In this document: positions 2,093 to 52,054 of the stretch, in pieces | Numbering within the stretch: the stretch's first letter is position 1 | How the letters are laid out: each line of letters opens with the position of its first letter | Assembly: GCA_041663145.1 (NCBI GenBank) | Contig: JBAZRG010000001.1 | Coordinates: forward strand, 10,467 to 74,466 | DNA: 64,000 nt | Source of the DNA: Minisyncoccota bacterium | GTDB taxonomy: Bacteria > Patescibacteriota > Minisyncoccia > Phycocordibacterales > PALSA-1337 | Direction of reading: 5' to 3' | Notes under the pieces: model-generated | What the model was told of the DNA's origin: nothing | Databases searched by the model: none | Seen by the model: only the letters and a program-made list of their open reading frames with translations | Program-made: the position numbers and the translations under genes

Positions 2093-3022
2093 ATGAAACA
2101 TATATTGCGCTCACAGCAGTTCGATAGATCCGCTTTGGAAAAACTGTTCTCGGCAACCGATGAACTTGGTCATGTGTATGATAATCCTGCAGGAAAAAAA
2201 GAGATAAGAAAATCCTGTGAAGGGAGACTTCTGTTCGCGATCTTTTACGAAGCGTCAACACGAACCAGATTTTCCTTCTGTTCGGCAGCTCATCATATCG
2301 GTATGGCTTCTGTTCAAACCGAGAACGCCAGAGAATTCTCTTCGGCTGTTAAAGGCGAAACGCTCGAGGACACAATAAATGTCCTTTGTCAGTACGATCC
2401 GGATATCATCGTCCTGCGTCATCATGAGACGGGTGGGGCAGATCGAGCAGCTGCCGTGATTGATCGCAATAATTACGAAGTATCAATTATCAATGCTGGC
2501 GACGGTAAGGGCCAACATCCCACACAGGCTTTGCTCGACTTATACACGATCAGACGTGAGCTTGGCAAGATTGACGGCATTACAGTTACAGTCGGAGGTG
2601 ACCTTGCAAACGGAAGAACTGTTAGGTCGCTGGTCTACCTGCTTACGAAGTTCAAGGACGTCAAGTTTATTTTTCTCTCGCCGGCAAATCTCAAAATGAG
2701 AGATGACATCATCGGCCACCTTCACGAGCATAGTGTTTCTTTCAAAGAAACTGAGAACGTCGAGGAAGCCTTGAAAGATGCTGATGTGGCTTATTGGACT
2801 CGTGTTCAGACCGAACGAGGAAGCATCAATACAACGCTCAATCTCTCTTTGGGGCTATCTGAAATGAAATACATGAAGCAAGGCTCAATATTACTTCATC
2901 CGCTTCCGAGGATCGACGAAATAGCCAAAGAAGTTGATAATGACACGAGAGCCGCCTATTTTCGACAAGTACGTAACGGCATGCTCATCAGAATGTCGCT
3001 TCTCAAGGGGTTGTGCGTCTGA
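2093..3022 (+). CDS. pyrB: aspartate carbamoyltransferase catalytic subunit
   Basis: STRTR carbamoyl-phosphate motif, HPTQ and HPLP motifs; 309 aa. Confidence 0.85.
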   Translation: MKHILRSQQFDRSALEKLFSATDELGHVYDNPAGKKEIRKSCEGRLLFAIFYEASTRTRFSFCSAAHHIGMASVQTENAREFSSAVKGETLEDTINVLCQYDPDIIVLRHHETGGADRAAAVIDRNNYEVSIINAGDGKGQHPTQALLDLYTIRRELGKIDGITVTVGGDLANGRTVRSLVYLLTKFKDVKFIFLSPANLKMRDDIIGHLHEHSVSFKETENVEEALKDADVAYWTRVQTERGSINTTLNLSLGLSEMKYMKQGSILLHPLPRIDEIAKEVDNDTRAAYFRQVRNGMLIRMSLLKGLCV

Positions 3023-4784: not shown

Positions 4785-4957
4785 CCAACATAATGTTCCA
4801 GCTAGCTTGGTGAACATTGTCCCTCAGCTCCTCGCAAGGTCACCCACTCCAAATTGCAACCATATTTGAATAGACGTAACTATTCAAATATGGGCAATTT
4901 GTTCGGGGTTCAAATCGCATTGCTCGTCGCTGACGAACAATGTTCACCAAGCTAGTG
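4785..4957. repeat. intergenic palindromic repeat element, copy 1 (terminal inverted repeats plus covarying central hairpin)
   Basis: Terminal inverted repeats ...tagcttggtgaacattgt / acaatgttcaccaagcta. Conserved core gcaaggtcacccactccaaattgcaacc ... gggcaatttgttcggggttcaaatc. Central hairpin catatttgaatag-acgtaa-ctattcaaatatg. Confidence 0.8.
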
Positions 4958-5029
4958 AAAATATTGTGTGATTTCTCTGGCAAAAATACTATTTAGTATC
5001 AAAATATCTAATCAAATTTCTGTAAATAA

Positions 5030-5083: not shown

Positions 5084-6922
5084 TTACTCGATGCTCAGTC
5101 TAGCCTTGTCTTTTGTCAGAAGAGAAGAGTACTTACCATGCTTGGAAAGTAGTTCATCGTGTGTTCCGCTCTCGACCAATTCTCCATTGTCCAAGACAAG
5201 TATGTTATCGGCATTTTTTGCTCGTGAGACGTGTTGTGTCACGATGATCATTGTGGTGTCTTTTTGAGCGAAGATTTTATCCATCAATCGTTCCGAAGCT
5301 TCTGGATCAAGCTTCGCATCAGGCTCATCTAGGATGAATATCGGCGTACCGCGGTATTTAGCTCGTGCCAGAGCGAGTCTTTGCTCTTCGCCTCCAGAGA
5401 ATTCCCGTCCATCGAATTCTGTGCCGATTTGAGAATCGAATCCTTTGGGGTCACCGTCGACTATGGGAGTGAATTCGGCGAATGATGCAGATTCACGTAC
5501 CTTTTCCATGTCGATGCTTTCTTCTAGTCTTGAGGACGCAATCTCCGAGCCTATAGTGCGTTCCATGATGGCAAAATTTTGCAATAACGCACAAGCTGTT
5601 TTGCTCCAAACTGTAGGTGCAATGTTGTTCAAGTTCAAATCACCTATGTGAATACTTCCGCTTGTCGGATCATAGTGCCGGAGCAAGAGTCCGATTAACG
5701 ATGATTTACCGCTACCGTTTGTCCCGACAATTGCCACTTTGGATCTGGGCCGGATCGTGAAAGATACGTTTCTTAGTACCAACACGTCTTTGTCGGGATA
5801 TGAAAACGATACATTGTTGAAATATATCGTCGGTGGACCAGTGAATTCTGGATCAACAGGGTTTACTGTCGAGAGTAGAGGTTTCAAGGCGAAATATTCT
5901 TCCTCGATCATGACCATGCCTTTGGCACTTTGCCATTGAGTCGCAATCTGCAGAACTATGTCTCTGATCGATGATTGTAGTCGTCTGGACGAACCTATAA
6001 TGACTGTGAGTGCACCCAAGTCTCCGCCAATAGAGAGTGTTCCCCAAACGGAGTGAAGGAGTACGATACTCAAACCCGCCATAGCAAAAAGGTATGCACC
6101 TAGACTTATCTGTAAGTTTTGCCAGCGTGCTTCAAGTACCGATTTGAGGACATGATCTTGATTGTCCTTGATCTGTTTCGAGAGTGTGGGAAGTTGATTG
6201 AACATCAGTCCTTGCAAGAATGATGTGGTCCCAAAGAACGCCTGTTGTAACACACTGCGACGTTTGTGATGTGGAATTAGTTCAAGCGACAGTTTCCACA
6301 TTCGACTTACGGCGGCAAACTCAGCGAAGACCATGGGTATGGACATAGCCAAGATGATGCAGACATAAATAGGATGTGTAGTTAAAAGCGAAATCCCAAA
6401 CACTACTAATCCTATCACCGCACTTAATGATTCAATCATTTCGCCTGCAAATGAGATGCGTGTACCCCAACTTTCGGGTAATTCATCGATTTTCTTTTCT
6501 ATGTCGTCATAGGTCTTGCTCCTTTTGCGTGCAATATCTAGTGAAGCACGCAGGTCATTCATTTCTTGGTTATTAGCCAACCGAAGAACATGTCTTTGTC
6601 GTTGAACTATAAATGACCGGAATTTCTGCAAGACAATCTCGATGAACAATGCCACAATAAACATCAGGACGGGCAGGAAATATCCGCCGCCAACGAACTC
6701 TTTCAATGTGATCGGGCTCTGACGGGGATTTGTTAGCTGAAGTTGTATGGAACTAATGAGCTCGCCCATGAGCAATATCATGACGTAGCCGAGAAGTGTC
6801 TGAGCAACAATTAACCCTGCAATTGTGATGGTGTCCTTGCGGTTGTTTCGGAAACAGAACGCAAATGAGTATCTCGAAGCTTTTTGAACTGTCGAGATAG
6901 CATCTAACAGACGTTTTTTCAT
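5084..6922 (-). CDS. ABC transporter, fused permease/ATP-binding (ABCB-type exporter)
   Basis: N-terminal 6-TM domain; Walker A GTNGSGKSSL; signature LSGGEEQRLALARA; Walker B ILDEPDAKLD. Confidence 0.85.
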   Translation of the reverse strand: MKKRLLDAISTVQKASRYSFAFCFRNNRKDTITIAGLIVAQTLLGYVMILLMGELISSIQLQLTNPRQSPITLKEFVGGGYFLPVLMFIVALFIEIVLQKFRSFIVQRQRHVLRLANNQEMNDLRASLDIARKRSKTYDDIEKKIDELPESWGTRISFAGEMIESLSAVIGLVVFGISLLTTHPIYVCIILAMSIPMVFAEFAAVSRMWKLSLELIPHHKRRSVLQQAFFGTTSFLQGLMFNQLPTLSKQIKDNQDHVLKSVLEARWQNLQISLGAYLFAMAGLSIVLLHSVWGTLSIGGDLGALTVIIGSSRRLQSSIRDIVLQIATQWQSAKGMVMIEEEYFALKPLLSTVNPVDPEFTGPPTIYFNNVSFSYPDKDVLVLRNVSFTIRPRSKVAIVGTNGSGKSSLIGLLLRHYDPTSGSIHIGDLNLNNIAPTVWSKTACALLQNFAIMERTIGSEIASSRLEESIDMEKVRESASFAEFTPIVDGDPKGFDSQIGTEFDGREFSGGEEQRLALARAKYRGTPIFILDEPDAKLDPEASERLMDKIFAQKDTTMIIVTQHVSRAKNADNILVLDNGELVESGTHDELLSKHGKYSSLLTKDKARLSIE

Positions 6923-7045: not shown

Positions 7046-7231
7046 TCAACATAATGTGGAATAGCTCGGTGAACATTGTCCCTCAGCTCCTCGCAAGGTC
7101 ATCACTCTCAAATTGAAGCCATGTTTCAGCAGATGGAACTACTGAAACATGGGCAATTTGTTCGGGGTTCAAATCGCATTGCTCGTCGCTGACGAACAAT
7201 GTTCACCAAGCTAGTGGGAACATTATGTTGA
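7046..7231. repeat. intergenic palindromic repeat element, copy 2
   Basis: Same terminal inverted repeats and core as copy 1. Central hairpin catgtttcagcag-atggaa-ctactgaaacatg, with compensatory changes relative to copy 1. Confidence 0.8.
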
Positions 7232-7274
7232 GGTATTTATGAGTAGTTACATCTGTACTTATCCACAGTATTCT

Positions 7275-7304
7275 TTGACAGGTGAACGGCTGTTCACCTA
7301 TACT
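7275..7304 (+). promoter_or_regulatory. promoter TTGACA-N18-TATACT with a perfect 18-bp palindrome (candidate LexA/SOS operator) as spacer
   Basis: ttgaca GGTGAACggctGTTCACC tatact. The GAAC-N4-GTTC core resembles the Cheo-type SOS box. Lies upstream of lexA. Confidence 0.5.
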
Positions 7305-7361: not shown

Positions 7362-7565
7362 ATGAGCAAGCAACAAGTCATCAGAACTATCAGATCCGAG
7401 ATCGATAGACTCAATCGAGAGATTGATCTTCGCATCATCAAAGGCGCTTCTTACAGGCGTGAGGCGCTCCGGCACAAATTCTTGATGGCTGAGCTTGCTC
7501 GGTTGGCACCAAAGAGGTCGTGGTTCGCAAGGTCCCTCAGTTTTGCATCGATGTTTCTATTCTGA
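7362..7565 (+). CDS. hypothetical small protein (67 aa) co-oriented upstream of lexA
   Basis: In-frame ATG downstream of the promoter at 7275. Charged helical N-terminus and hydrophobic C-terminus SWFARSLSFASMFLF. The ORF-track start at 7239 overlaps the promoter and is rejected. Confidence 0.3.
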   Translation: MSKQQVIRTIRSEIDRLNREIDLRIIKGASYRREALRHKFLMAELARLAPKRSWFARSLSFASMFLF

Positions 7566-8177: not shown

Positions 8178-9515
8178 ATGCAACCACTCACGATCCATTC
8201 ATTTCCACGCGCCATACTTCATGTCGATGGAGACGCTTTTTTCGCATCATGTGAAGTTGCTAAGGATCCGACTCTTCGTGGTAAGCCGGTAGTGACAGGT
8301 CTCGAGCGTGGTATAGCATCATCTATGACTTATGAAGCCAAGATGCGTGGCGTGACTCGAGCCATGAGTTTGCGAGATATTCGGAAAATCTGTCCGGACG
8401 TCATCATTTTGCCTTCAGATTATGAGACATATAGTTTGTATTCAAAACGGATGTACGAAATAGTTCGTCGATTTACTTCTGATATTGAAGAATATAGTAT
8501 CGATGAATGTTTTGCTGATCTGACCGGCATGCGTCGACCAAATAATATGTCCTATGAGGAGATGGCTATGCGAATCAAGCACGATCTAGATACTGAGCTT
8601 GGTATGACATTTTCTGTTGGTTTATCTGTCAACAAAGTGCTCTCCAAAATCGGTTCAAAATGGAAGAAACCATCTGGCCTCACTATAATTCCTGGTTACA
8701 ATATTCATCTATATCTTTCGAAAACTCCTGTAGAAAAGATTTGGGGTATTGGTCCAAATACATCTGCATATCTCAATAAATATGGCATCAAGACAGCTTT
8801 AGATTTTGCAATTAGAGATAAATATTGGGTCAGATCCAATCTATCAAAACCGTTTCAAGAGATTCATTCTGAATTGAATGGCAGTTTCGTATATCCACTT
8901 ACGCTTGGCGAAAAACATGACTATACATCTATAAGCAAAACAAAGACTTTTACTCCACCTTCTAGTGATGCGAAGTTTGTATTTGCTGAACTATCAAAGA
9001 ATATTGAAAATGCTTGCATCAAGCTACGCCGACATGATCTATTTGCAAAGAAATTTGCTTTTTTTATTAAGAATCAAGAATTCCGATATTCAGGTTTGGA
9101 AATCAATCTAAATGTAGGAGTTAGAACACCAGAACAAATACTATCCTTGGCTCGTGAAAGATTTGGGGAGGTTTTCAATAAAGGATTTTTGTATAGATCT
9201 ACAGGAGTTATTTTGATGAACCTTATTCATGATGATGTTTCAACTCTCGATCTCTTTGGTGATTCTGCATTATTAGCAAAGACAAATAAGATCTACGAAG
9301 CAGTCGATCGGATCGATCGAAAATATGGCAAGCATACGATATTTTTAGGTTCATCATTTCGTGCTATCAAAAAACCAATAGCCGAGAGTATGTCTTCGTC
9401 TAAGACGGATTCAAGCAATAGTCGTAATTGTATAACCGAGCGTCGCAACCATCTTCTCAAAGGTGAAACAGCAAGAAAACGTCTTGGAATTCCATTTTTA
9501 GGGATAACAATGTGA
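8178..9515 (+). CDS. dinB: Y-family DNA polymerase (DinB/UmuC-like)
   Basis: ILHVDGDAFFASCE palm motif at the N-terminus; lies immediately downstream of lexA. Confidence 0.8.
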   Translation: MQPLTIHSFPRAILHVDGDAFFASCEVAKDPTLRGKPVVTGLERGIASSMTYEAKMRGVTRAMSLRDIRKICPDVIILPSDYETYSLYSKRMYEIVRRFTSDIEEYSIDECFADLTGMRRPNNMSYEEMAMRIKHDLDTELGMTFSVGLSVNKVLSKIGSKWKKPSGLTIIPGYNIHLYLSKTPVEKIWGIGPNTSAYLNKYGIKTALDFAIRDKYWVRSNLSKPFQEIHSELNGSFVYPLTLGEKHDYTSISKTKTFTPPSSDAKFVFAELSKNIENACIKLRRHDLFAKKFAFFIKNQEFRYSGLEINLNVGVRTPEQILSLARERFGEVFNKGFLYRSTGVILMNLIHDDVSTLDLFGDSALLAKTNKIYEAVDRIDRKYGKHTIFLGSSFRAIKKPIAESMSSSKTDSSNSRNCITERRNHLLKGETARKRLGIPFLGITM

Positions 9516-18928: not shown

Positions 18929-18940
18929 GGTATTTGGTGT

Positions 18941-19096
18941 GAGAGCTCGGTGAACATTGTTCCGAAACGACTCGCAATGTGATTTGAACCCCGAACAAAT
19001 TGCCCATATATGAGTAGCTCCGTCTACTCATATATGGTTGCAATTTGGAGTGGGTGACCTTGCGAGTCGTTTCGGAACAATGTTCACCGAGCTCTG
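18941..19096. repeat. intergenic palindromic repeat element, copy 3 (inverted orientation)
   Basis: Terminal inverted repeats gagctcggtgaacattgttccgaaac / gtttcggaacaatgttcaccgagctc. Reverse-complement core identical to the other copies. Central hairpin catatatgagtag-ctccgt-ctactcatatatg. Confidence 0.8.
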
Positions 19097-19202
19097 AAAT
19101 ATTATCTTATATATAATTCTCGGAATAAAAAAGAACAATGTGTGTGGTTACTTTATTTACATACGCTTCATGAATCCTTAATTTTCTGCTACTATTCCTG
19201 TC

Positions 19203-21467: not shown

Positions 21468-21563
21468 GTAACCCATGGCAACATCATGTCCCTCCGTAAC
21501 CTGCGGGCGCTTCGCTGGTCACAATCCTCGGTTACTACGGGACATAATGTAGCCATGGGTTAC
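21468..21563. other. ~96-bp nested imperfect palindrome (structured element; possible ncRNA, terminator or MITE-like element)
   Basis: gtaacccatggc...agccatgggttac outer stem; atgtccc/gggacat and gtaacc/ggttac inner stems; GC-rich 28-nt loop. Lies between valS and the next gene. Confidence 0.4.
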
Positions 21564-21651
21564 ATTGGTTGCTATCCACAGTCTTTTTAGCTTTTGTAGT
21601 CAATAAGCGATATTATATAGGTGTTATTATCCTACTTTTTCCAATTAATAC

Positions 21652-23394
21652 ATGAAAAAACATATTTTAATATTGATTGCCTTGTTTCTAGTAGTCGGAG
21701 TAGCTATACCGATGTTGAGTCAGGCACAATCCAGTCCTTCGCCAACTCCAGGAGGAACACCTAGTCCAACTGCAACCCCGCTTCCTCCGGCACCATCACC
21801 TAGTTCTGTATCGATTACTATGTTAACACCGGCGGAGGGCACGGTCTACACTACTGCACAGGCGGTCAATATAACTGTCACTACTGGTGGTGATTATCAA
21901 GGTGCCAGAGTACTTTTTTATAAAAATAGCGTACATTTTGCCACAGATTATTCTGCGCCGTTTGGTTATGCTTGGAATATCACATCAATCGATAATGGTG
22001 AAACGGATATCGAAGCCAGAGTATATGATACGGAAGGAAATTCAACCATTACACCTCCTCGACATATCACGATTAACATACCGATTCCCGCTGCCAGTGA
22101 GCCACTCAAGCTGAGCGGATGGGCTTGGGCTTCCAATATCGGTTGGATCAGTTTTTCATCGGATAATGCGACTGCCAATAGTAATTCAAAATCTACCTTA
22201 GCTCAAGAAATCGGTATGATAAAATTCGCTAATGCCGGTGGCGGTCCTTATGGTGTGACGATGGCTACTTCGACTTCACAGCAACTTATCGGCACACTGT
22301 CTGGTTATGCCTGGTCTAATAATATCGGTTGGATCAAGTTCGGCGGTCTTTCAGGTTTTCCTAACACTTCTATCGTTGGTGAAAATGCACAGGTAAATCT
22401 GACGCCTGGTGTGAGTAATTTAAGCGGTAAAGTAACCGGTTGGGCTAGAGCTTGTTCGGGGACTCTGCATGGAGATTGTTCTACTATGGAACCACGAACT
22501 GACGGTTGGGATGGTTGGATAGCACTTCAGGGTACAAATCATATATCACCAAACACCTTTGGTCCTAGTGGTAAATCTATAGGTGGTGTCACTCTCGGTA
22601 ATGATCCGGCAAATACCGTTACATTTAACAATTTCAGCGGCTATGCCTGGGGTGGATCGGTTGTCGGTTGGGTGGACTTTATGCCAGATGTCAATCTAGC
22701 TTCTGGATTTACCGGGGTTACGATCGATAGAGAGATTCCTAATAATGTAGTGTACACATCTTTGTCTGGTTCGTGCACTGTAGTACCAGCATCCAGCAGA
22801 ATTCAGACTTCAAATACACCTGTTACTATCGTTCCACAAATAACTGTGACAGGAGGTAGTGGAGAATACACATATACCCCTCTGTCGAAATCATTTACCT
22901 TCAACAATAGCAGTGCGGTAAATCAGACTTTGACCATTCTTATAACAGATAATGTCACTAAAAATACAGTCACTGTAAGTTGCGGAACTGTCAATATAAC
23001 CATAGTAAAAGATGATTCTTTGACCTTGGAAATCGGAGCTCCTGGTATAGGCGAGGCTGTTAAACCTCACCCAAGCACAAGTCCTCTGGTGGTCAAACTC
23101 GGTACCGATGTGACGCTTGAGTGGACAAATTCATTGCCAGTATATGATATTAATACTGGGGAAGGATTTAGGTGCGTACCGATCATTGATCCTACTACGG
23201 ATAGTTACTTTAACGATCAGTGGCGTTCAGGTCATGTTGACGTGACTGTTGATGGATCATTAGTAAATATAGATACTATTACAACTGGTACTTATGAGTT
23301 TAAGATAGACTGCAATCATCCGGCAGATAACAGTTTGTTTAAAACTAAATCAGCTTTTCTCAAAATATATAGTGCAAGTCAAGGAGAGATATAA
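21652..23394 (+). CDS. large secreted repeat protein (signal peptide, PT-rich linker, GYAWxxNIGWIxF repeats)
   Basis: Signal peptide; SPSPTPGGTPSPTATPLPPAPSPSS linker; repeated SGWAWASNIGWISF, SGYAWSNNIGWIKFGG and SGYAWGGSVVGWVDF modules. Confidence 0.6.
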   Translation: MKKHILILIALFLVVGVAIPMLSQAQSSPSPTPGGTPSPTATPLPPAPSPSSVSITMLTPAEGTVYTTAQAVNITVTTGGDYQGARVLFYKNSVHFATDYSAPFGYAWNITSIDNGETDIEARVYDTEGNSTITPPRHITINIPIPAASEPLKLSGWAWASNIGWISFSSDNATANSNSKSTLAQEIGMIKFANAGGGPYGVTMATSTSQQLIGTLSGYAWSNNIGWIKFGGLSGFPNTSIVGENAQVNLTPGVSNLSGKVTGWARACSGTLHGDCSTMEPRTDGWDGWIALQGTNHISPNTFGPSGKSIGGVTLGNDPANTVTFNNFSGYAWGGSVVGWVDFMPDVNLASGFTGVTIDREIPNNVVYTSLSGSCTVVPASSRIQTSNTPVTIVPQITVTGGSGEYTYTPLSKSFTFNNSSAVNQTLTILITDNVTKNTVTVSCGTVNITIVKDDSLTLEIGAPGIGEAVKPHPSTSPLVVKLGTDVTLEWTNSLPVYDINTGEGFRCVPIIDPTTDSYFNDQWRSGHVDVTVDGSLVNIDTITTGTYEFKIDCNHPADNSLFKTKSAFLKIYSASQGEI

Positions 23395-23442
23395 AAAATC
23401 CCTTGCTTGCAGAGAGGCTGCAGCAAGGGCTGAGTGTTCGAG

Positions 23443-24372
23443 CTAATTTGCGAAAGCCCGGTAGAAGCGTTGTGGTTCCCTGGGAACTACGACAAGTCTT
23501 CGGACTCGAGGCGCCGGTACCCAGTCGACTCCGTTGGTCGAGGTTTCGACAGTTACATCTGCTCCACGAGCAGCTGCAACACTAAGATTACCTCGCCTAT
23601 CTATTTTCAGTACGGGTGGAGCGATGAGTTCTCCGAACTGAGTATATGTGTAGGTCTGGTCTTTTACAGTGATGTGAAATCTTACCACATTCGTTCCTTG
23701 ACAATACGGGCTACTCAAAACAACGTAGTCCTTCTGTGTACATTCCTGCTTGATACCGGGCCAGTTCGTGTAGTGCGAACCTTTTTGTGTATTCCATGTA
23801 TAGGAATATTCTATTGGTCGACCGACCTCGACTCGAAATTCTTGCAATCCCACAACATGCACAGGTATCCTGTAAACATGTGGCAGTGTAATTACACGAA
23901 ATGAGTTTGAGGTGATCTGTGGTATGGTTCCCAATGGTGTGGGTGAAAAGAATGCTGAAACATATCCATTTGGTGGTGGATGAAAATCAACACTTGTGAA
24001 GAAGTAAATCGGAGAAGTGGGAGCGTAGATGTTCGTCCGGACCTCTTCGAGGAGTTCCAATCCTGTAACCGCTGTGAGATTCAGATATTCTTCAAGAGAA
24101 TTTAATCCTCCACCAATTGAACCAAATCTACCTGGCTCACATCTTTTATTGATGGAGTTGGTATACATGAGATTCATGTAGAAGTTAATTCCAGGAAGAT
24201 CGTTGCTTCTGGACACAATCCAAGCCAACGACTCCTCCAAACTCCCGATCGGAAGCTTGGCAGGTACCCCTTTGGGTACCGTGAATCCAAATGCTGTTTC
24301 TCCCGACCATGCTTCTATTTGAAGCGCAGTCAAGAGAAATGATGCGATCAGACTGATCACGATCTTTTTCAT
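23443..24372 (-). CDS. hypothetical secreted protein
   Basis: N-terminal signal peptide MKKIVISLIASFLLTALQIEA; 309 aa. Confidence 0.5.
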   Translation of the reverse strand: MKKIVISLIASFLLTALQIEAWSGETAFGFTVPKGVPAKLPIGSLEESLAWIVSRSNDLPGINFYMNLMYTNSINKRCEPGRFGSIGGGLNSLEEYLNLTAVTGLELLEEVRTNIYAPTSPIYFFTSVDFHPPPNGYVSAFFSPTPLGTIPQITSNSFRVITLPHVYRIPVHVVGLQEFRVEVGRPIEYSYTWNTQKGSHYTNWPGIKQECTQKDYVVLSSPYCQGTNVVRFHITVKDQTYTYTQFGELIAPPVLKIDRRGNLSVAAARGADVTVETSTNGVDWVPAPRVRRLVVVPREPQRFYRAFAN

Positions 24373-24508
24373 TTTTTCCTTTTTTTGCGCCTCAGCCCTT
24401 TGGGGGGGTGAAGCAAGTTTTAGTGCCGGTAGTGATCTACCGGAGTGGACTTTTCTCGTTTTGTCAACGAGCTAAGACCTAACTAACGTGAGTATATATA
24501 AAATACAT

Positions 24509-24539
24509 GATTTGTCAAGGGGGAGTTATACACAGGCTA
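24509..24539 (-). promoter_or_regulatory. conserved 30-nt upstream motif, copy A (contains a TTGACA -35 on the minus strand)
   Basis: atttgtcaagggggagttatacacaggcta. On the minus strand it reads TTGACA-N16-TATACT upstream of the 23443..24372 gene. Confidence 0.45.
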
Positions 24540-24572
24540 ATGATTTTTCAGATTCTGGATAATTCTTCATTT

Positions 24573-25559
24573 CTAATGTTTAACTATCCTTAAAACTGAT
24601 TTTTTATCAGAAACAATCAATTGTACCTTTCCTCCAATGGGGAAAGTAATCGTAGGACTAGTGTGTCCGAAATCCACGTTTGCTAATACAGGTATGCGAT
24701 CCAATTCCTTTCTATATTTGATTATTTTTATCAAATGATCTGCTGTTATTGCGCTGTCTTTCTGAAATCTGCCAATCACTATTCCTTTTACCTTGTCAAA
24801 ATTCGGAAGATGCATTATAGACTGTAAATCACGGTCAAAATTGACTAGCTTAGAGTCACTATCGTCCTCTAGAAATAGAATTGAGTCAGCTATATCTGGT
24901 AGATATTCCGTTCCTTGGAGAAGATTGAATGTGCAAATATTCGCACCGAGAATTGTGCCTTCTGCAACACCCGCATTAATCATCCACCAACCATCGTTCT
25001 TGAGCAGTTTTCGTTTTTCCTGATCCTTATACCATCCATCATCGCTCCACGATTCACTTGATAATATATCGAATTCTTTTTCATCTATGATGCACTTTTT
25101 AAAATATTCCAGTGTATAATCAAAATAAAGTTTCTGACCGAAGGTTGAATAGAGTGGTCCCGAATATGTAACAAGTCCTGTCTTTGTAAAGATAGCATTT
25201 TGTAATGCTGTTATGTCTGAATAACCGACAAAGATTTTGGGATTAACTTTTATAATATCCCAATTTATATAGCGCAAGAGTTGATTGGAATTGAAACCTC
25301 CAAATGCAGCAAATATTCCTTTTACATTCTTGTTTAAAAAAGCTTCATGCAAATCAGCAACCCTTGATTCAATGCTTGATGAATCAAATTCATTGAGCTC
25401 GTTGACATTTTTCGCAAACAATACCTTGAGTCCCATTTCAGAAAATCTTTCATCTGCAATCTGTTTAACTTCTTTGGAAATACATCCTAAAGAATCAGAT
25501 GGGGCTATTATCATAATCGCATCACCACGTTTCAATTTCTGTGGAAATATAGGTTTCAT
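24573..25559 (-). CDS. ldcA: LD-carboxypeptidase (peptidase S66; LdcA/MccF family)
   Basis: GYSDITAL catalytic-serine motif and DFGHT catalytic His. Start taken at the internal ATG at 25559; the ORF-track start is GTG. Confidence 0.75.
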   Translation of the reverse strand: MKPIFPQKLKRGDAIMIIAPSDSLGCISKEVKQIADERFSEMGLKVLFAKNVNELNEFDSSSIESRVADLHEAFLNKNVKGIFAAFGGFNSNQLLRYINWDIIKVNPKIFVGYSDITALQNAIFTKTGLVTYSGPLYSTFGQKLYFDYTLEYFKKCIIDEKEFDILSSESWSDDGWYKDQEKRKLLKNDGWWMINAGVAEGTILGANICTFNLLQGTEYLPDIADSILFLEDDSDSKLVNFDRDLQSIMHLPNFDKVKGIVIGRFQKDSAITADHLIKIIKYRKELDRIPVLANVDFGHTSPTITFPIGGKVQLIVSDKKSVLRIVKH

Positions 25560-25662
25560 ATACTGTATTTGGTATAAATTGTATCTTTTTATTATATAAA
25601 ATACCACTGGGCATAGGGTAAATCCAGTGGTATGATCTCCGATCTCAATCTGTAATCAGTGA

Positions 25663-26238
25663 TCAGAGTAGGATGTGACAGGCGTCGATGTGAATGGAGA
25701 CCGAAGTAAGTCGCTTCACCAGAAACATGCCGTACTTGCTAGTGTCCGTCATCACGGCTACTATCATTCCAGGTTCCAGTTTCGCGCGCACGCCACATGC
25801 TTCGCATGCAGTGTTACATGTGTTTATTAACGCCTGGACGTTCTCCAATGTGTGGAGTTCGTAGAAACGGTGTGCTGTAATTTTGGCAGGAGCAACCCAC
25901 GTCTTGCCAAACAACTCACCATTGATGGAGTCTCCAAGCAAACCAGAAGCGTATGCTTCTTGAATCGCACAAGCTTCTGCGGAAGCCACAGTGTCAAAGA
26001 GAAAAAGCAAGTTAGCTTCTACGCCGAGATCGGTGGCGCTTGTGATCGCCCAAACTTTGTTGGCTTTGCACTTGAGAAGCGGATACAATGGTTTTTCAGC
26101 TGTGAACCTGGCGGAGTAGGCATAGTACTCACCAGGAATTGCCTGAATGATAGACTCACTCAGAGTTGTTGGTGTCTTAGACCATCCGCCGAAAAGTGTA
26201 ACACTTCTCGGAATAGGTCTCTGCATTAATGTTTGCAT
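25663..26238 (-). CDS. hypothetical protein (191 aa)
   Basis: No confident family. Contains a CNTAC segment reminiscent of Asp/Glu racemase ACNTA, but the domain order does not fit. Confidence 0.4.
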   Translation of the reverse strand: MQTLMQRPIPRSVTLFGGWSKTPTTLSESIIQAIPGEYYAYSARFTAEKPLYPLLKCKANKVWAITSATDLGVEANLLFLFDTVASAEACAIQEAYASGLLGDSINGELFGKTWVAPAKITAHRFYELHTLENVQALINTCNTACEACGVRAKLEPGMIVAVMTDTSKYGMFLVKRLTSVSIHIDACHILL

Positions 26239-26333
26239 AATATGACTATTTTGTTGGTGCTGATCAAATCGCTTTATTCAATGAATAAATTAGCACGACT
26301 TGATTCTAAACACAGAATGACTTGTTTCCGGTA

Positions 26334-26363
26334 TTTGTCAAGAGTGAGTTATACACAGGTCTA
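26334..26363 (-). promoter_or_regulatory. conserved 30-nt upstream motif, copy B
   Basis: atttgtcaagagtgagttatacacaggtcta; 28 of 30 positions shared with copy A. Lies upstream of the 25663..26238 gene. Confidence 0.45.
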
Positions 26364-26474
26364 AAGTAGAGTTTATTGTGGAGATAATAAAGAGACGTTG
26401 CCGAGTAAGACGCAGGTTAATTTTTTTTAAACTACATCGTCAAAGTACTATTAAAATGATAGCATAAACACATA

Positions 26475-26918
26475 TTGGAATATTGTAATCACATGCAGAA
26501 AGGTCTCATAATACATACACTTGTTGTCAATGATAAAGGGGAAGTCCTTATACTACAGAGATCGAAGCTGGAAGATGTTCTTCCGGAATATTGGGATATT
26601 CCAGGAGGAACATTGGAAGATGGTGAGGATCCTGCAGTCGGCGCTATTCGAGAAGTAAAAGAGGAAACTGGTTTAAATATTTTTGAGCCACAGCTATTCT
26701 TTCAAAGGTCTAATGTCGACCTAAAGAAGAATAAGCAATTTGTGACTCTAGTATTCCTTGCAAAAAATACTGGCGCAGAAGTCATTCTCAATCCATGTGA
26801 ACATAGTGAATACGAATGGATCAATGTTAAGGATGTTTCAAAGTATAAGACGGTAGATTATTTAGCAGATTGTTTGAAACTTTTTGCTTCAGGGAAGCAT
26901 CCATCTCTAAATTTATGA
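26475..26918 (+). CDS. Nudix hydrolase
   Basis: Nudix box GGTLEDGEDPAVGAIREVKEETGL. Confidence 0.75.
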   Translation: MEYCNHMQKGLIIHTLVVNDKGEVLILQRSKLEDVLPEYWDIPGGTLEDGEDPAVGAIREVKEETGLNIFEPQLFFQRSNVDLKKNKQFVTLVFLAKNTGAEVILNPCEHSEYEWINVKDVSKYKTVDYLADCLKLFASGKHPSLNL

Positions 26919-27087
26919 TGACTAGGGATATTGATCTTATATATTTTTACAATGACAATTATGAATACCGGACTAATTGTTCATATAGTTATTTTTAATG
27001 GCAGACCATACCCTTACAGTATCTTCTTCTTGATCGGAAATCTGAAAAAAGCTAAACTAATGATTGTGAACGAGAGAAAGAGAAATT

Positions 27088-27420
27088 ATGAAAACATTAT
27101 CTGAAATCCAGCAACGACAGCGCGAGCTGCTTACGGGCATTGAACATCCTCGTTTAGGCAACGTCTTGGGTCTCTTTGAAGAGATTGGGGAATTGGCCAA
27201 AGAGGTCACAGAAGTGGAAATGTACGGACAGCCTAAACAAGAGAATTTCGGCAAAGAGTGCGCCGATGTCCTCTTCAGCCTTCTGTCCATTTGCGATTCA
27301 TACGGAATCGACTTGTCTGGCGAATACGCGGCAAAGGTCACAGAAATTGAGGGTAAAATCTCTGAGTGGAAGATTAGGTACGGGAAGACCCTCGAAGTTC
27401 TGAGAAAAAAGCTCGACTAA
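27088..27420 (+). CDS. MazG-like nucleotide pyrophosphohydrolase domain protein
   Basis: LGLFEEIGELAKEV and ECADVLFSLLSICDSYGIDL are typical of the MazG/all-alpha NTP-PPase fold. Confidence 0.55.
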   Translation: MKTLSEIQQRQRELLTGIEHPRLGNVLGLFEEIGELAKEVTEVEMYGQPKQENFGKECADVLFSLLSICDSYGIDLSGEYAAKVTEIEGKISEWKIRYGKTLEVLRKKLD

Positions 27421-27451
27421 GTTGCTTATTTGATACAAGGTCTTGCATTTA

Positions 27452-27480
27452 CAAAAAAGCCCGAAGAAAAACTTCGGGCT
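27452..27480 (-). terminator. intrinsic terminator after MFS gene
   Basis: AGCCCGAAG-loop-CTTCGGGCT preceded on the + strand by AAAAAA. Confidence 0.5.
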
Positions 27481-27489
27481 GTGAAGATG

Positions 27490-28707
27490 CTATAAAGCTT
27501 CTCTAATTAGACTTTGGATACGGCTTTGGGGGAAGAGTTTGCAGTAACGACGGTAACTTGTCATACCCAGAATGAGAACGGTGATGCCTAAGATGATCAA
27601 TGAGTTCAATAAACCCAATCTCTTATCCATCATTCCAAAACAGAAGAGCGATATAACAGTCACCATGTCGGAGAGGGATGAGCGCACAGACAAAACTGTC
27701 GCACGGATCTTTTCTGAATTGATATGATGATTCATGAATCCTTCCGTGAATGGTCGCATGAATCCGCGTACCATATTTTGAGAGGTGACGAGGTATGCCA
27801 TGGCGGCCAAAGGGAATACTCCCATAATAAGGATTGGTAAACCAACACAGACTATCATGCCGACTATACAAGATCGCTCATTTAGTCTCGACTGGATCCG
27901 GTGAGCCCAATGGCTCGAGGCCCAGGCAACGATGTTGAGCAGAAAGAAGATCACCCCGTAATATCGGAGATCAATTCCAACAATCACAAAATACGGATTG
28001 TAGGTGAAGAACCAGATTTTGGAAGCACCCACGAGCAGGGCGCAGAATCCGATGATCCAGCGTATCTCTGGTTTGCGAATAGCATATAAGGTACCGTCTT
28101 TCATTGTTCGCAACTGTTCTCCGATACTGAATTTCTTTGTCACAACCGGTTCTTTCATATAGAAAGAGACGATCAGCGGGATGAAGAGAAACGGTAGACA
28201 GCAATATAGCGGCAAGCGCATATTGATGCTGGCCATTGGTCCTACTGCTAGTGAGCAGAATGCGATAAGTAGCATCCGACCACCGACAGCACACCCTTCA
28301 ATCCGTGAGAACTTTTTCTGAAGCCCTCTTGCGTTCAAGTTGCTATAGAGTAGGGCAACATCAGCCCCATTTTGTAATGAGTAGCCGAATGCCCATAGAA
28401 TGTTTCCGATCCAAGCGTCGAGCGGCGAGGTCATAGTGATAAAGAAGACACGGCTAGCGATATGGAAGACCATTGCAATGATCAGTGTCTTTTTTCGTCC
28501 GATGATATCTGCCAAAGCACCAGCTGGAATGTTGAGAATTACACAGAGTACCATAACTGTAGCCTCCATGAAATAAATGTCCGGCAAAGTCATGTGGGCC
28601 AATTGCTGAATCGAGATGATGAGAATTGGTCCCCAGAACAGAGGTTCACTGAACAAGATGAAGAGTTTGTAAAGTACGATATTCCTGCGTATGTGACTAG
28701 TTTTCAA
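27490..28707 (-). CDS. MFS transporter
   Basis: 12 predicted TM helices; GALADIIGRKK MFS loop motif. Confidence 0.8.
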   Translation of the reverse strand: MKTSHIRRNIVLYKLFILFSEPLFWGPILIISIQQLAHMTLPDIYFMEATVMVLCVILNIPAGALADIIGRKKTLIIAMVFHIASRVFFITMTSPLDAWIGNILWAFGYSLQNGADVALLYSNLNARGLQKKFSRIEGCAVGGRMLLIAFCSLAVGPMASINMRLPLYCCLPFLFIPLIVSFYMKEPVVTKKFSIGEQLRTMKDGTLYAIRKPEIRWIIGFCALLVGASKIWFFTYNPYFVIVGIDLRYYGVIFFLLNIVAWASSHWAHRIQSRLNERSCIVGMIVCVGLPILIMGVFPLAAMAYLVTSQNMVRGFMRPFTEGFMNHHINSEKIRATVLSVRSSLSDMVTVISLFCFGMMDKRLGLLNSLIILGITVLILGMTSYRRYCKLFPQSRIQSLIREAL

Positions 28708-29048
28708 CTTCGATCCTTTCTATTTGATTTTCAAAGTTCTATTTTCTCTGGACGCGGAATGAAAAATCCCGACTTTCGTCCAGTCGGGATTTTTCTAGAG
28801 TGCTTTTGAATTAAGGATTAACTCAAAGGTATATTAGAAACATCACGACCGGTCGCAAGTTCGCCGTGAAAGGCGGACATAGCAATATAACCGCAAACGA
28901 GGTTCTGCGGATTCCAGTTCTTATTTGTGATGTTAATATTTTCGTGCATGGGTATCATATTAAACTATGTTGTAATATTTGTCAAAATTCTGCTGAAGAT
29001 TGATTATGTCGTATAAAGATAGTTATGTTATACTGAACAAACACCAAT

Positions 29049-35198: not shown

Positions 35199-35630
35199 TC
35201 ATTGGAACAGCCGAGCCTTTTGTGGTTTGTCCTTCTTTCCCTGCCATTCTATATACCGTTTTACCTGTACCTCATTCAAACCGACGGTGGAGGAGAAATA
35301 CCCGACGCTCCAGATGCCGTCGGATTCAAGGTATATCTCCCGAATGAACCTGAATCTTTTTCGGAGAGCTCTACTCGAATTAGCTTTAAGTTTTCCGACA
35401 GCATCTGAGACGTTGGTATTCGGAGCTATCTCAATCTGAATATGCACATGGTCTTCATCAGTGTTCATGACTTCAATCCAGAGCGTCGGATATTTCTTTA
35501 CGGTGCTGTAGAGTGACTTCTTGAGTTCTAGGAGTACATATGGCTTGAGTATCTTGTATCTGTATTTGGTGCCCCAAACTATATGGTACTGATGTTGGTA
35601 TGTGCTGTGATTAAGCTTACGAAGCCTCAT
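35199..35630 (-). CDS. tnpA: IS200/IS605 family transposase TnpA (Y1 HUH)
   Basis: YHIVWGTKYRYKIL N-terminus, HVHIQIEIAPN (HUH) and catalytic Tyr region; 143 aa. Confidence 0.8.
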   Translation of the reverse strand: MRLRKLNHSTYQHQYHIVWGTKYRYKILKPYVLLELKKSLYSTVKKYPTLWIEVMNTDEDHVHIQIEIAPNTNVSDAVGKLKANSSRALRKRFRFIREIYLESDGIWSVGYFSSTVGLNEVQVKRYIEWQGKKDKPQKARLFQ

Positions 35631-51988: not shown

Positions 51989-52030
51989 GTGACCTTGCGA
52001 GTTGTGTCGGAACAATGTTCACCGAGCTCA
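51989..52030. repeat. solo end fragment of the palindromic repeat element (partial copy 5)
   Basis: gtgaccttgcgagttgtgtcggaacaatgttcaccgagctca matches the right ~42 nt of copy 3, but no core or hairpin follows. Confidence 0.65.
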
Positions 52031-52054
52031 TGTAAATGATATAATGCTTGCACC

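Follow-up and report, generated by a model that had tools for sequence, protein, structure and literature searches.

The replication initiator DnaA also regulates genes unrelated to replication in Bacillus subtilis, and the promoters under its control in E. coli include those of dnaA, nrdAB, mioC, polA and purH together with the SOS genes uvrB, recN and dinJ, which are co-repressed by DnaA and LexA. CPR bacteria (Patescibacteria) cannot be cultured on their own, their reduced genomes encode very few transcription factors, and gene regulation in them is essentially uncharted. According to published work, DnaA controls transcription in E. coli, among others that of SOS genes together with LexA (PMC11317965, PMC6015884), and in Caulobacter crescentus it governs genes with no part in replication (PMC3193534). 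The DnaA box consensus is TTATNCACA or TTWTNCACA (PMC12371093, PMC11317965); single consensus boxes in E. coli are often unbound in vivo, and in vivo binding there needs box pairs 2-3 bp apart (PMC11317965). Promoter-adjacent DnaA control is known in other bacteria and is not described in this CPR group, and none of the papers in the literature that we searched combined 'DnaA box' with 'Patescibacteria'.

Analyzing a window of 64 kb (the whole stretch of DNA considered here), we found two intergenic sites that may be promoters with a single DnaA box at which DnaA acts as a transcription factor, a reading to which we give about an even chance, and the transcription of two neighbouring genes is probably tied to DNA replication in this way. 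As at E. coli DnaA-regulated promoters, a consensus 9-mer box coincides with a sigma-70 promoter or directly precedes it, and the lexA promoter in the same window combines a DnaA box with a LexA box as E. coli uvrB p3 does (PMC6015884). Unlike the E. coli promoters, those described here, and all CPR sites examined, have a single box, and the predicted targets are an operon for a cell-wall recycling peptidase and the gene of a secreted orphan protein. The DnaA regulons of Caulobacter and B. subtilis also differ from the present case in that they were derived from ChIP and expression data, with boxes that are often clustered, whereas the sites here were read from the DNA sequence.

A shared promoter core at two intergenic sites

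Read on the minus strand, the shared block is 27 nt long and has the form CCTGTGTATAACTC-N-C-N-CTTGACAAAT, which on the plus strand becomes ATTTGTCAAG(G/A)G(G/T)GAGTTATACACAGG (Table 1). The original prediction of a shared intergenic motif in front of two minus-strand genes turned out to be real, with 25 of 27 positions identical in an ungapped comparison and 0 of 100 dinucleotide shuffles matching the motif. The two sites it had named, at 24509-24539 and 26334-26363, also stood, but these coordinates were off by 1-2 nt and out of register, and the identity of 28/30 has to be replaced by 25/27 (28/31 requires that a 1-nt gap be opened after CAGG). Because the flanks of the two copies are unrelated to each other, the block is not part of a longer duplication, and a longer duplicated segment, which the original prediction had named as a refuting outcome, was rejected as the source of the match. 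No further copies were found in the window, even with 3 mismatches allowed in the core's 18 specified bases, and within the window the full 27-mer is thus confined to the two sites, unlike the combination of box and -35, which is also present at the lexA promoter and on a Kerfeldbacteria contig. The cores are 1.8 kb apart, both inside a 7.6-kb segment specific to the lineage, which the syntenic relative L029 lacks, and they are unrelated to the palindromic repeat family (150-167 nt) of this DNA, as had been claimed. No known RNA families or tRNAs were found at or near the two sites, and a contig of the same strain was identical in sequence and therefore uninformative for comparison.

Table 1. 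Coordinates of the promoter elements, boxes and genes discussed in the text.
Feature	Position in window	Strand	Remarks
Site 1, 27-nt shared promoter core CCTGTGTATAACTCCCCCTTGACAAAT	24510..24536	-	
Site 1 DnaA box TTATACACA	24526..24534	+	sequence match; extended GAGTTATACACAGG at 24523-24536
Site 1 weak second box TTATCCAGA	24554..24562	-	1 mismatch; 19 nt upstream of main box, opposite facing; significance uncertain
Site 1 -35 hexamer TTGACA	24513..24518	-	
Site 1 -10 hexamer TATACT	24491..24496	-	16-nt spacer
Secreted hypothetical protein gene (309 aa)	23443..24372	-	downstream of site 1
Site 2, 27-nt shared promoter core CCTGTGTATAACTCACTCTTGACAAAT	26333..26359	-	
Site 2 DnaA box TTATACACA	26349..26357	+	sequence match; extended GAGTTATACACAGG at 26346-26359
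Site 2 -35 hexamer TTGACA	26336..26341	-	kept in orthologous promoters L006, L032
Site 2 probable -10 CATTCT	26314..26319	-	16-nt spacer; A2 and T6 present
5'-UTR hairpin of 191aa-S66 operon	26263..26304	-	17 predicted pairs, 2 with compensatory changes, 3 genomes
CPR-specific protein gene (191 aa), no Pfam family	25663..26238	-	first operon gene, downstream of site 2
S66 LD-carboxypeptidase gene	24573..25562	-	second gene of 191-aa operon
lexA-operon promoter: TTATCCACA-7 nt-TTGACA-GGTGAACggctGTTCACC (LexA/Cheo-type box)-TATACT	7259..7304	+	

Both sites pair a sigma-70-type -35 with a -10 at a spacing within the 16-18 nt range. At site 1 the TTGACA-16-TATACT arrangement matches the consensus at 11 of 12 positions and is the top promoter match in 23000-27500 (4.5 kb), and two orthologous operon promoters retain the -35, spacing, -10 and 5'-UTR hairpin of site 2, the -10 position reading TATTCT (L006) or TAACCT (L032) with A2, C5 and T6 kept. 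The TTGACA previously proposed as a -35 is thus genuine and of sigma-70 type, being canonical at site 1 and ortholog-conserved at site 2. Checked by eye, the block did not fit CRP, LexA (CTGT-N8-ACAG, GAAC-N4-GTTC), IHF, a Pho box, sigma-54 or a Bacteroidetes-type promoter.

The genes downstream differ in what they offer for comparison. The -35 of site 1 lies 141 nt from the ATG of the gene for the 309-aa secreted protein, which is an orphan (no homologs among 5.8 billion proteins), and this site has no ortholog for comparison. Site 2 sits 98 nt before the 191-aa gene, and the pairing of that gene with the S66 LD-carboxypeptidase gene is kept in other CPR genomes, so that of the two downstream genes named originally the secreted hypothetical protein was right, while the 'uncharacterised 191-aa protein' is better described as the leading member of a conserved 191aa + LD-carboxypeptidase gene pair. 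The DnaA box was found in 0 of 5 orthologous 191aa-S66 promoters (L006, L008, L032, L034, L037), and the box therefore has no long-term conservation at this operon. The structure of the 191-aa protein was modelled with confidence (pLDDT 85), but DUF4466 was its sole PDB match, a weak one at TM 0.59. Genes for 191-aa proteins in the relatives L022 and L029 were considered as homologs and rejected, as they encode unrelated proteins, and a close NUDIX homolog was seen in a non-syntenic context.

DnaA boxes at the two sites, at lexA and elsewhere in CPR DNA

The upstream part of each core (in the minus-strand reading) holds TTATACACA, which at both sites fits the DnaA box consensus exactly and is separated from TTGACA by a gap of 7 nt. 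Much as at oriC, where the box sequence including its flanks is nearly identical, the 14-nt upstream block CCTGTGTATAACTC matches E. coli R1 CCTGTGGATAAC and the reverse complements of R4 CTGTGGATAACTC and R2 TGTGTATAAC; the oriC sequence used, whose boxes bear the names R1, R2 and R4, is 100% identical to E. coli chromosomes. The flanks also match the lineage's own boxes (AGTTATNCACAG), with AG-box-G as at the lexA promoter, and they resemble those of proven strong boxes (E. coli R1/R4). Tandem partner boxes 2-3 bp away were absent, the best candidates at sites 1 and 2 having 5-6 mismatches, and none of the 11 CPR boxes examined had a good partner; a counterpart of the weak second box of site 1, with 2 mismatches, occurs at the same offset at site 2. 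Among the window ORFs scanned against Pfam (to about 54.7 kb, several smaller ORFs left out), none was dnaA.

Evaluating exact boxes together with exact TTGACA hexamers across the window, we found that, among spacings of 0-20, only spacing 7 occurs, and that it occurs three times, the third case being the independent lexA promoter, against a chance expectation of about 0.001 per spacing. The box thus stands at the core promoter, 7 nt from TTGACA, at site 1, site 2 and lexA alike. At the lexA promoter, five distinct Paceibacterota genomes all carry the box TTATCCACA unchanged, at a distance of 6-10 nt from the -35, and the sequence around it has diverged among them. Perfect boxes in 204 kb of CPR DNA numbered 10 intergenic and 3 coding, compared with averages of 1.47 intergenic and 8.43 coding for same-composition control 9-mers (1 of 300 controls reaches 10), a statistic that includes sites selected beforehand and that, once collapsed, becomes about 4-5 intergenic boxes versus 1.5 expected. 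Every intergenic box lies 15-34 nt upstream of a -10. Within the window the total of perfect boxes was 5 versus 3.2 expected, with no over-representation overall. Cumulative GC skew rises monotonically through the region, and a replication origin was rejected as an identity for it: unlike oriC, there is no skew switch, no box cluster and no AT-rich unwinding element, and each box is tied to a promoter.

A genome-wide scan for a regulon, as had been suggested, showed the motif to be rare in public data, since the 18-base core pattern returned 1 CPR locus (Kerfeldbacteria) and one Clostridia locus in three genomes from 596 Gb of genomes. The Kerfeldbacteria contig (L013) reads CCTGTGTATAACTCGCACTTGACA-17-TATTGT, and four bases outside the searched pattern also match, whereas the Clostridia locus matches at the searched positions only, is without the box and was rejected as a motif member. 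Scanning metagenomes with the core pattern gave 10 loci, about background numbers, with the Kerfeldbacteria contig among them; two of the others carry a full TTGACA (L010, phage-like, and L012, plasmid-like), and the rest look like chance. On viral contigs, TGTGTATAA followed by N6, N7 or N8 and TTGACA had 107, 84 and at least 120 matches, respectively, among which we saw neither a preference for N7 nor shared flanks.

Competing explanations for the shared core

To summarize the favoured explanation, each site would be a sigma-70-type promoter core, with a -35 TTGACA, a 16-nt spacer and a -10, and with a single putative high-affinity box, TTATACACA (extended AGTTATACACAG), which lies 7 bp before the -35, around -44 to -52. 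Binding of DnaA to the box would alter RNA polymerase recruitment, both the binding and its effect on transcription being predicted, and expression of the 191aa/LD-carboxypeptidase operon and the orphan secreted protein would then follow the level or activity of DnaA, hence replication status. The upstream block had been taken for a shared activator or repressor site, and the shared-regulator part of that claim stands; as the block is a perfect DnaA box, however, the likely regulator is the replication initiator and not a dedicated factor encoded nearby. Looking for such a factor, as the original prediction had proposed, we found no transcription factor gene adjoining the two sites, the nearest regulator genes being LexA, at a distance of 17 kb, and two orphan histidine kinases at 3-7 kb. 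As to the direction of the effect, repression seems to us somewhat likelier than activation: every intergenic box seen adjoins or overlaps the -35 region, and a spacing that may vary from 6 to 10 nt does not suit a precisely phased activator contact.

The same similarity could have arisen if a 27-nt piece of one promoter had been duplicated to the neighbouring gene, with no special regulation and an incidental resemblance to a DnaA box. Several observations suit this: the 25/27 identity includes bases outside the box and the -35, the cores are close together in a segment particular to the lineage, the orphan gene at site 1 must have acquired a promoter somehow, and TTGACAAA(T) is ancestral to the 191-aa promoter, with the box absent from orthologs. 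We nevertheless regard copying with no regulatory role as unlikely, given that it leaves unexplained a perfect DnaA box with matching flanks (estimated chance about 2e-4 per given 14-mer), the equal box-to-(-35) distance at the independent, conserved lexA promoter and the Kerfeldbacteria copy, and that the sharp boundaries of the core are exactly those of functional elements. As the origin of the second copy, copying is compatible with the DnaA explanation. That the two cores are almost the same beyond the box and the -35 as well points to one being a copy of the other, and the identical bases concerned (C16, C18, AAT) fit copying, not independent selection; because the -35 of site 2 is ancestral, site 1 is probably the copy. 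Taking the DnaA box together with the copied core, our best reading is that a promoter module bearing a DnaA box has spread locally. Putative mobile or propagated promoters are identical promoter segments upstream of unrelated genes, and the present case resembles them in having a near-identical core before two non-homologous genes in one genome, but differs in that the shared piece is only 27 nt, is bounded by functional elements and comes with no mobile element.

Other readings keep the block functional and dispense with DnaA, or keep DnaA and dispense with the promoter. That the 14 nt of CCTGTGTATAACTC are identical in three sites, and so exceed a 9-mer box, and that the boxes at sites 1 and 2 are oriented opposite to the lexA box, with A as the central base versus C at all lexA boxes, would be expected if the block were the site of another lineage-specific transcription factor and its DnaA-box similarity a coincidence; we find this quite improbable, since no regulator gene adjoins, the block has neither the internal dyad nor the direct repeat usual for dimeric factors, its conserved flanks are those of E. 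coli R1/R4 and of the lineage's lexA boxes, and the motif is not upstream of other genes in the window. Dispersed high-affinity boxes in E. coli titrate DnaA (PMC12371093), and two strong boxes within 1.8 kb might likewise be reservoir sites, like E. coli datA and its dispersed boxes, that bind DnaA and do not control promoters, but titration would not need a fixed -35 adjacency at three promoters or the promoter-proximal siting of every intergenic box, and known titration loci are box clusters whereas the boxes here are single, all of which makes it very improbable. It is hardly credible that the two same-orientation direct repeats, which do bracket the 191aa-S66 pair inside the lineage-specific segment, are att-like recombination sites on either side of a 1.8-kb cassette of two genes: no gene for an integrase or recombinase lies nearby, the sole transposase (IS200 type) is 9 kb away and has different ends, other genomes have this gene pair but not the 27-nt repeats, and the -35 within the repeat is ancestral to the 191-aa promoter. 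Equally slight is the chance of an alternative (e.g., ECF-type) sigma promoter, which the original prediction had entertained, or of a second overlapping promoter with TATAAC as its -10. A long conserved block does extend beyond the -35, and TGTGTATAAT is used as a -10 at another place in the window (18379), but both hexamers and their spacing are of the canonical sigma-70 kind, orthologs without the block keep the -35 and the -10, no sigma gene is nearby, and at none of the three sites does TATAAC have a -35-like hexamer 16-18 nt upstream, its TG being out of register for an extended -10.

Returning to DnaA control, we tentatively raise the possibility, in our estimation a good deal weaker than the case for the two sites, that in Paceibacterota, perhaps in CPR more widely, single high-affinity boxes that overlap or adjoin the -35 mark out a DnaA regulon, which would include the lexA operon, cell-wall recycling genes and lineage-specific surface proteins, with DnaA as a principal global regulator that would couple replication, DNA-damage response and envelope turnover through single boxes, unlike the double boxes of E. 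coli. If functional, the box-promoter cores would provide a testable signal in CPR and a short list of genes following the replication cycle, and the invariant lexA-promoter box of five genomes would extend the DnaA-LexA cross-talk of E. coli uvrB to the SOS master regulator. For annotation, an anonymous conserved motif becomes a set of promoter and operator features for which whole genomes can be searched. For design only, the search-pattern pair for the box is TTATNCACA / TGTGNATAA with N5 to N10 before TTGACA, and TTATAGTCA is an example of a point-mutant form of TTATACACA.

Two promoter copies and their genes

The two minus-strand promoter copies (sites 1 and 2) share a 27-nt block, which a motif search located at both places given in the original prediction, shifted by 1-2 nt; the "28 of 30" identity reported there holds only if gapped, with 25 of 27 positions identical in ungapped comparison, and 0 of 100 dinucleotide shuffles produced a match. 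Aligned over 190 nt each, the two copies and their surroundings lose their likeness abruptly at the block borders, which excludes the remnant of a longer duplicated segment that had been named as a competing explanation. Relaxing the search did not yield a third copy in the 64 kb: neither 3 mismatches among the core's 18 specified bases nor 2 mismatches in the upstream 12- and 14-mers added one.

The -35 half of the block was correctly read from the outset as part of a promoter, and the two promoter assignments are well supported. Site 1 has TTGACA-16 nt-TATACT (11 of 12 hexamer positions), the top sigma-70-type match within 23000-27500. At site 2, TTGACA followed by AAA and the -35/-10 spacing are retained upstream of the orthologs of the 191-aa gene in the CPR loci L006 and L032 (61% and 52% protein identity), with -10 elements sharing A2/C5/T6 (CATTCT at site 2, TATTCT in L006, TAACCT in L032). 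The upstream block is not retained in the orthologous promoters of L006, L032, L008, L034 and L037, so that the -35 is ancestral and the upstream block a lineage-specific addition. In front of the 192-aa ortholog in L006, a 13-nt element unlike the block, CCACGCGGCCAGC, is present twice (5810-5895), one copy adjoining the -35 where the window carries the DnaA box described below, and may be the site of another regulator in that genome.

Minus-strand order runs from site 2, in a divergent intergenic region with a NUDIX gene on its other side, through the 191-aa and S66 LD-carboxypeptidase genes to site 1 and the gene for a 309-aa protein, which had no homolog among 5.8 billion proteins searched. 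Because the 191-aa and S66 genes are also paired in other CPR genomes (L032, L034, L035, L037), site 2 would drive an operon, whose 5'-UTR hairpin (17 predicted pairs, compensatory changes at 2) recurs in L006 and L032, has no Rfam match and might serve as a leader or as regulatory RNA.

Coordinates of features in the window and in loci from other genomes
Feature	Locus	Position	Strand	Remark
Site 1 block	window	24510-24536	-	ATTTGTCAAGGGGGAGTTATACACAGG as read on + strand
Site 2 block	window	26333-26359	-	ATTTGTCAAGAGTGAGTTATACACAGG as read on + strand
309-aa protein	window	23443-24372	-	signal peptide; after site 1
S66 LD-carboxypeptidase	window	24573-25562	-	after 191-aa gene, before site 1
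191-aa protein	window	25663-26238	-	no Pfam family; directly after site 2
5'-UTR hairpin	window	26263-26304	-	
5'-UTR hairpin	L006; L032	~5935-5980; ~2935-2980		
lexA promoter	window	7259-7304		TTATCCACA-gtattct-TTGACA-GGTGAACggctGTTCACC-TATACT
lexA-promoter layout	L021; L022; L024; L029	8838; 9678; 9521; 9674		
Small ORF before lexA	window	7364-7565	+	~67 aa, MSKQQVIRTIRSEIDRLNREIDL...
Kerfeldbacteria core and hairpin	L013 (= L002)	9374-9475 (= 6408-6510)		
Palindromic repeats	window	4797-4969, 7048-7234, 18937-19108, 51989-52031, 61759-61931		
Y1 transposase (IS200/IS605-type)	window	35199-35630	-	

Sites 1 and 2 lie in a stretch of ~7.6 kb (21.5-29 kb) between ValS and an acyltransferase, which are directly adjacent in the partly syntenic relative L029/L030 (shared LexA, CysS, CorA, ValS, acyltransferase). 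This stretch (21500-29000), missing in the relative (compared with L029 17098-17150), also encodes a Big_7 surface protein, a MazG-like protein and an MFS transporter besides the orphan 309-aa, S66, 191-aa and NUDIX proteins. The transposase gene is the sole mobile-element gene seen in the window.

Probable DnaA boxes at the two sites and at lexA

The upstream half of the block, originally suggested to be a shared regulator site or an alternative sigma motif, is most likely a DnaA box, the sigma reading being unlikely. On the plus strand the block reads GAG-TTATACACA-GG, in which TTATACACA conforms to the DnaA-box consensus TTATNCACA / TTWTNCACA (PMC12371093, PMC11317965). The E. coli oriC sequence used for comparison is 100% identical to E. 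coli chromosomes. Its DnaA boxes R1, R4 and R2 read CCTGTGGATAAC, CTGTGGATAACTC and TGTGTATAAC (the latter two as reverse complements), nearly the same box and flanks as the block in the same register, CCTGTGTATAACTC, so that an extended high-affinity box accounts for the entire 14-nt upstream block. The estimated chance of a consensus box on either strand of a given 14-mer is ~2e-4, ignoring the ~12 motifs compared by eye, and we consider binding of DnaA plausible and somewhat favoured.

Listing all TTGACA hexamers of the window with a good -10 revealed a further promoter, which precedes a small ORF and the genes for LexA (S24 peptidase) and a Y-family polymerase. Its DnaA box and its -35 are both perfect and stand exactly 7 nt apart, the distance seen at sites 1 and 2. 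Exact boxes with exact TTGACA number three in the window, at spacing 7 only (spacings 0-20 scanned), against a chance expectation of ~0.001 per spacing. Across lexA loci from five distinct genomes (window, L021, L022, the Taylorbacteria locus L024, L029), TTATCCACA is invariant, 6-10 nt upstream of a -35-like hexamer that is followed by GGTGAAC-N4-GTTCACC, a Gram-positive-type LexA box between -35 and -10, and then TATAAT; the intergenic DNA on either side has diverged. The bases bordering these boxes (AG before, G after) are those found in the block of sites 1 and 2. This clear phylogenetic footprint shows that a box beside the -35 is under selection in the Paceibacterota lineage to which the window belongs, and suggests that the SOS repressor itself is controlled by DnaA together with LexA; the invariance of the lexA-promoter box across Paceibacterota is the most interesting by-product of the analysis. 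The small ORF, which opens the lexA operon and is uncharacterised, lies between promoter and lexA and holds the same position in the other four genomes (63-68 aa).

Proposed mechanism and rival explanations

Our best explanation is a promoter core of the sigma-70 type whose one high-affinity DnaA box sits at about -44 to -52. DnaA, in the role of transcription factor, would control the 191aa/LD-carboxypeptidase operon, the gene for the orphan secreted protein and likewise the lexA operon; whether the box regulates the two transcription units of sites 1 and 2 we judge an evenly balanced call. As to sign, we lean towards repression, because every intergenic box lies against the -35 or overlaps it, because a spacing that varies over 6-10 nt at lexA does not resemble the contact made by a phased activator, and because E. 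coli DnaA represses SOS genes jointly with LexA (PMC6015884). Box orientation at sites 1 and 2 is opposite to that at lexA, and a tandem partner at 2-3 bp is missing from all 11 CPR boxes.

Identity of the two cores extends to bases needed by neither box nor -35 (C16, C18 and the AAT after the -35), which points to one core having been copied from the other rather than to independent evolution; with TTGACAAA ancestral to the 191-aa promoter, site 1, in front of the orphan gene, is the likelier copy. The same bases, together with the absence of the box from the promoters of orthologous 191aa operons, speak for a rival in which a promoter core was copied without function; such copying is compatible with DnaA control, as the way in which the second copy arose. 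Further rivals would make the upstream block a site for another factor or for DnaA titration, or the copies att sites.

Promoter DnaA boxes are well known in B. subtilis. They are equally so in E. coli, Caulobacter and Pseudomonas (PMC11317965, PMC3193534, PMC13438810), so that the kind is not new and the lineage is, one whose regulation has not been studied; our literature search returned no paper linking DnaA boxes with Patescibacteria. In vivo, E. coli DnaA occupies mainly double boxes, with many single consensus boxes unoccupied (PMC11317965), whereas the CPR sites are single boxes.

Boxes across CPR DNA

Over 204 kb of CPR DNA (the window together with L006, L008, L019, L021, L022, L024, L029, L032, L034 and L037, fetched via protein look-ups), perfect boxes numbered 10 intergenic, a count that includes the lexA orthologs and sites 1 and 2 selected by us, and 3 coding, compared with means of 1.47 and 8.43 for 300 same-composition control 9-mers (1 of 300 reached 10 intergenic). 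Collapsing the selected sites leaves ~4-5 intergenic boxes versus 1.5 expected, a skew that persists but is modest. Boxes appear depleted in coding DNA, as would fit a tendency to avoid stray high-affinity sites, and one box counted as coding, at window 18379, turns out to be the -10 hexamer of a TTGACT-16-TATAAT promoter.

The remaining intergenic boxes are promoter-proximal, 15-27 nt upstream of a -10, before tyrS (L019), before gap (L022) and in the valS-acyltransferase gap (L029), where a perfect TTATCCACA stands right behind the valS stop codon. Those at L022 20060 and L019 10834 overlap the -35 position, and the gap and tyrS mRNAs may be leaderless, their -10 being so near the start codons.

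The wider motif scan envisaged in the original prediction found the block only twice in the window and rarely in public data: the full motif occurred in 596 Gb of genomes at one CPR locus, in Kerfeldbacteria, and at one Clostridia locus without box, and matches in metagenomes were about as many as background would give, two possible mobile-element sites (L010, L012) among them. Viral contigs had no 7-nt preference (N6 107, N7 84, N8 at least 120 matches), so that the architecture is not a general property of box- and promoter-bearing DNA. In the Kerfeldbacteria contig L002/L013, the space separating prfB from a ComEC-like gene contains CCTGTGTATAACTCGCACTTGACA-17-TATTGT, which matches at 4 further bases outside the searched pattern; ~15 nt past the predicted start lies a strong terminator-like hairpin, CCTCTCGT-tgtaag-ACGAGGGG-T7, and the unit may represent an attenuator or a very short sRNA. 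The window also contains a MITE-like family of intergenic palindromic repeats (150-167 nt, GTGAACATTGTTC-type cores), one copy of which stops 25 nt ahead of the lexA-promoter DnaA box.
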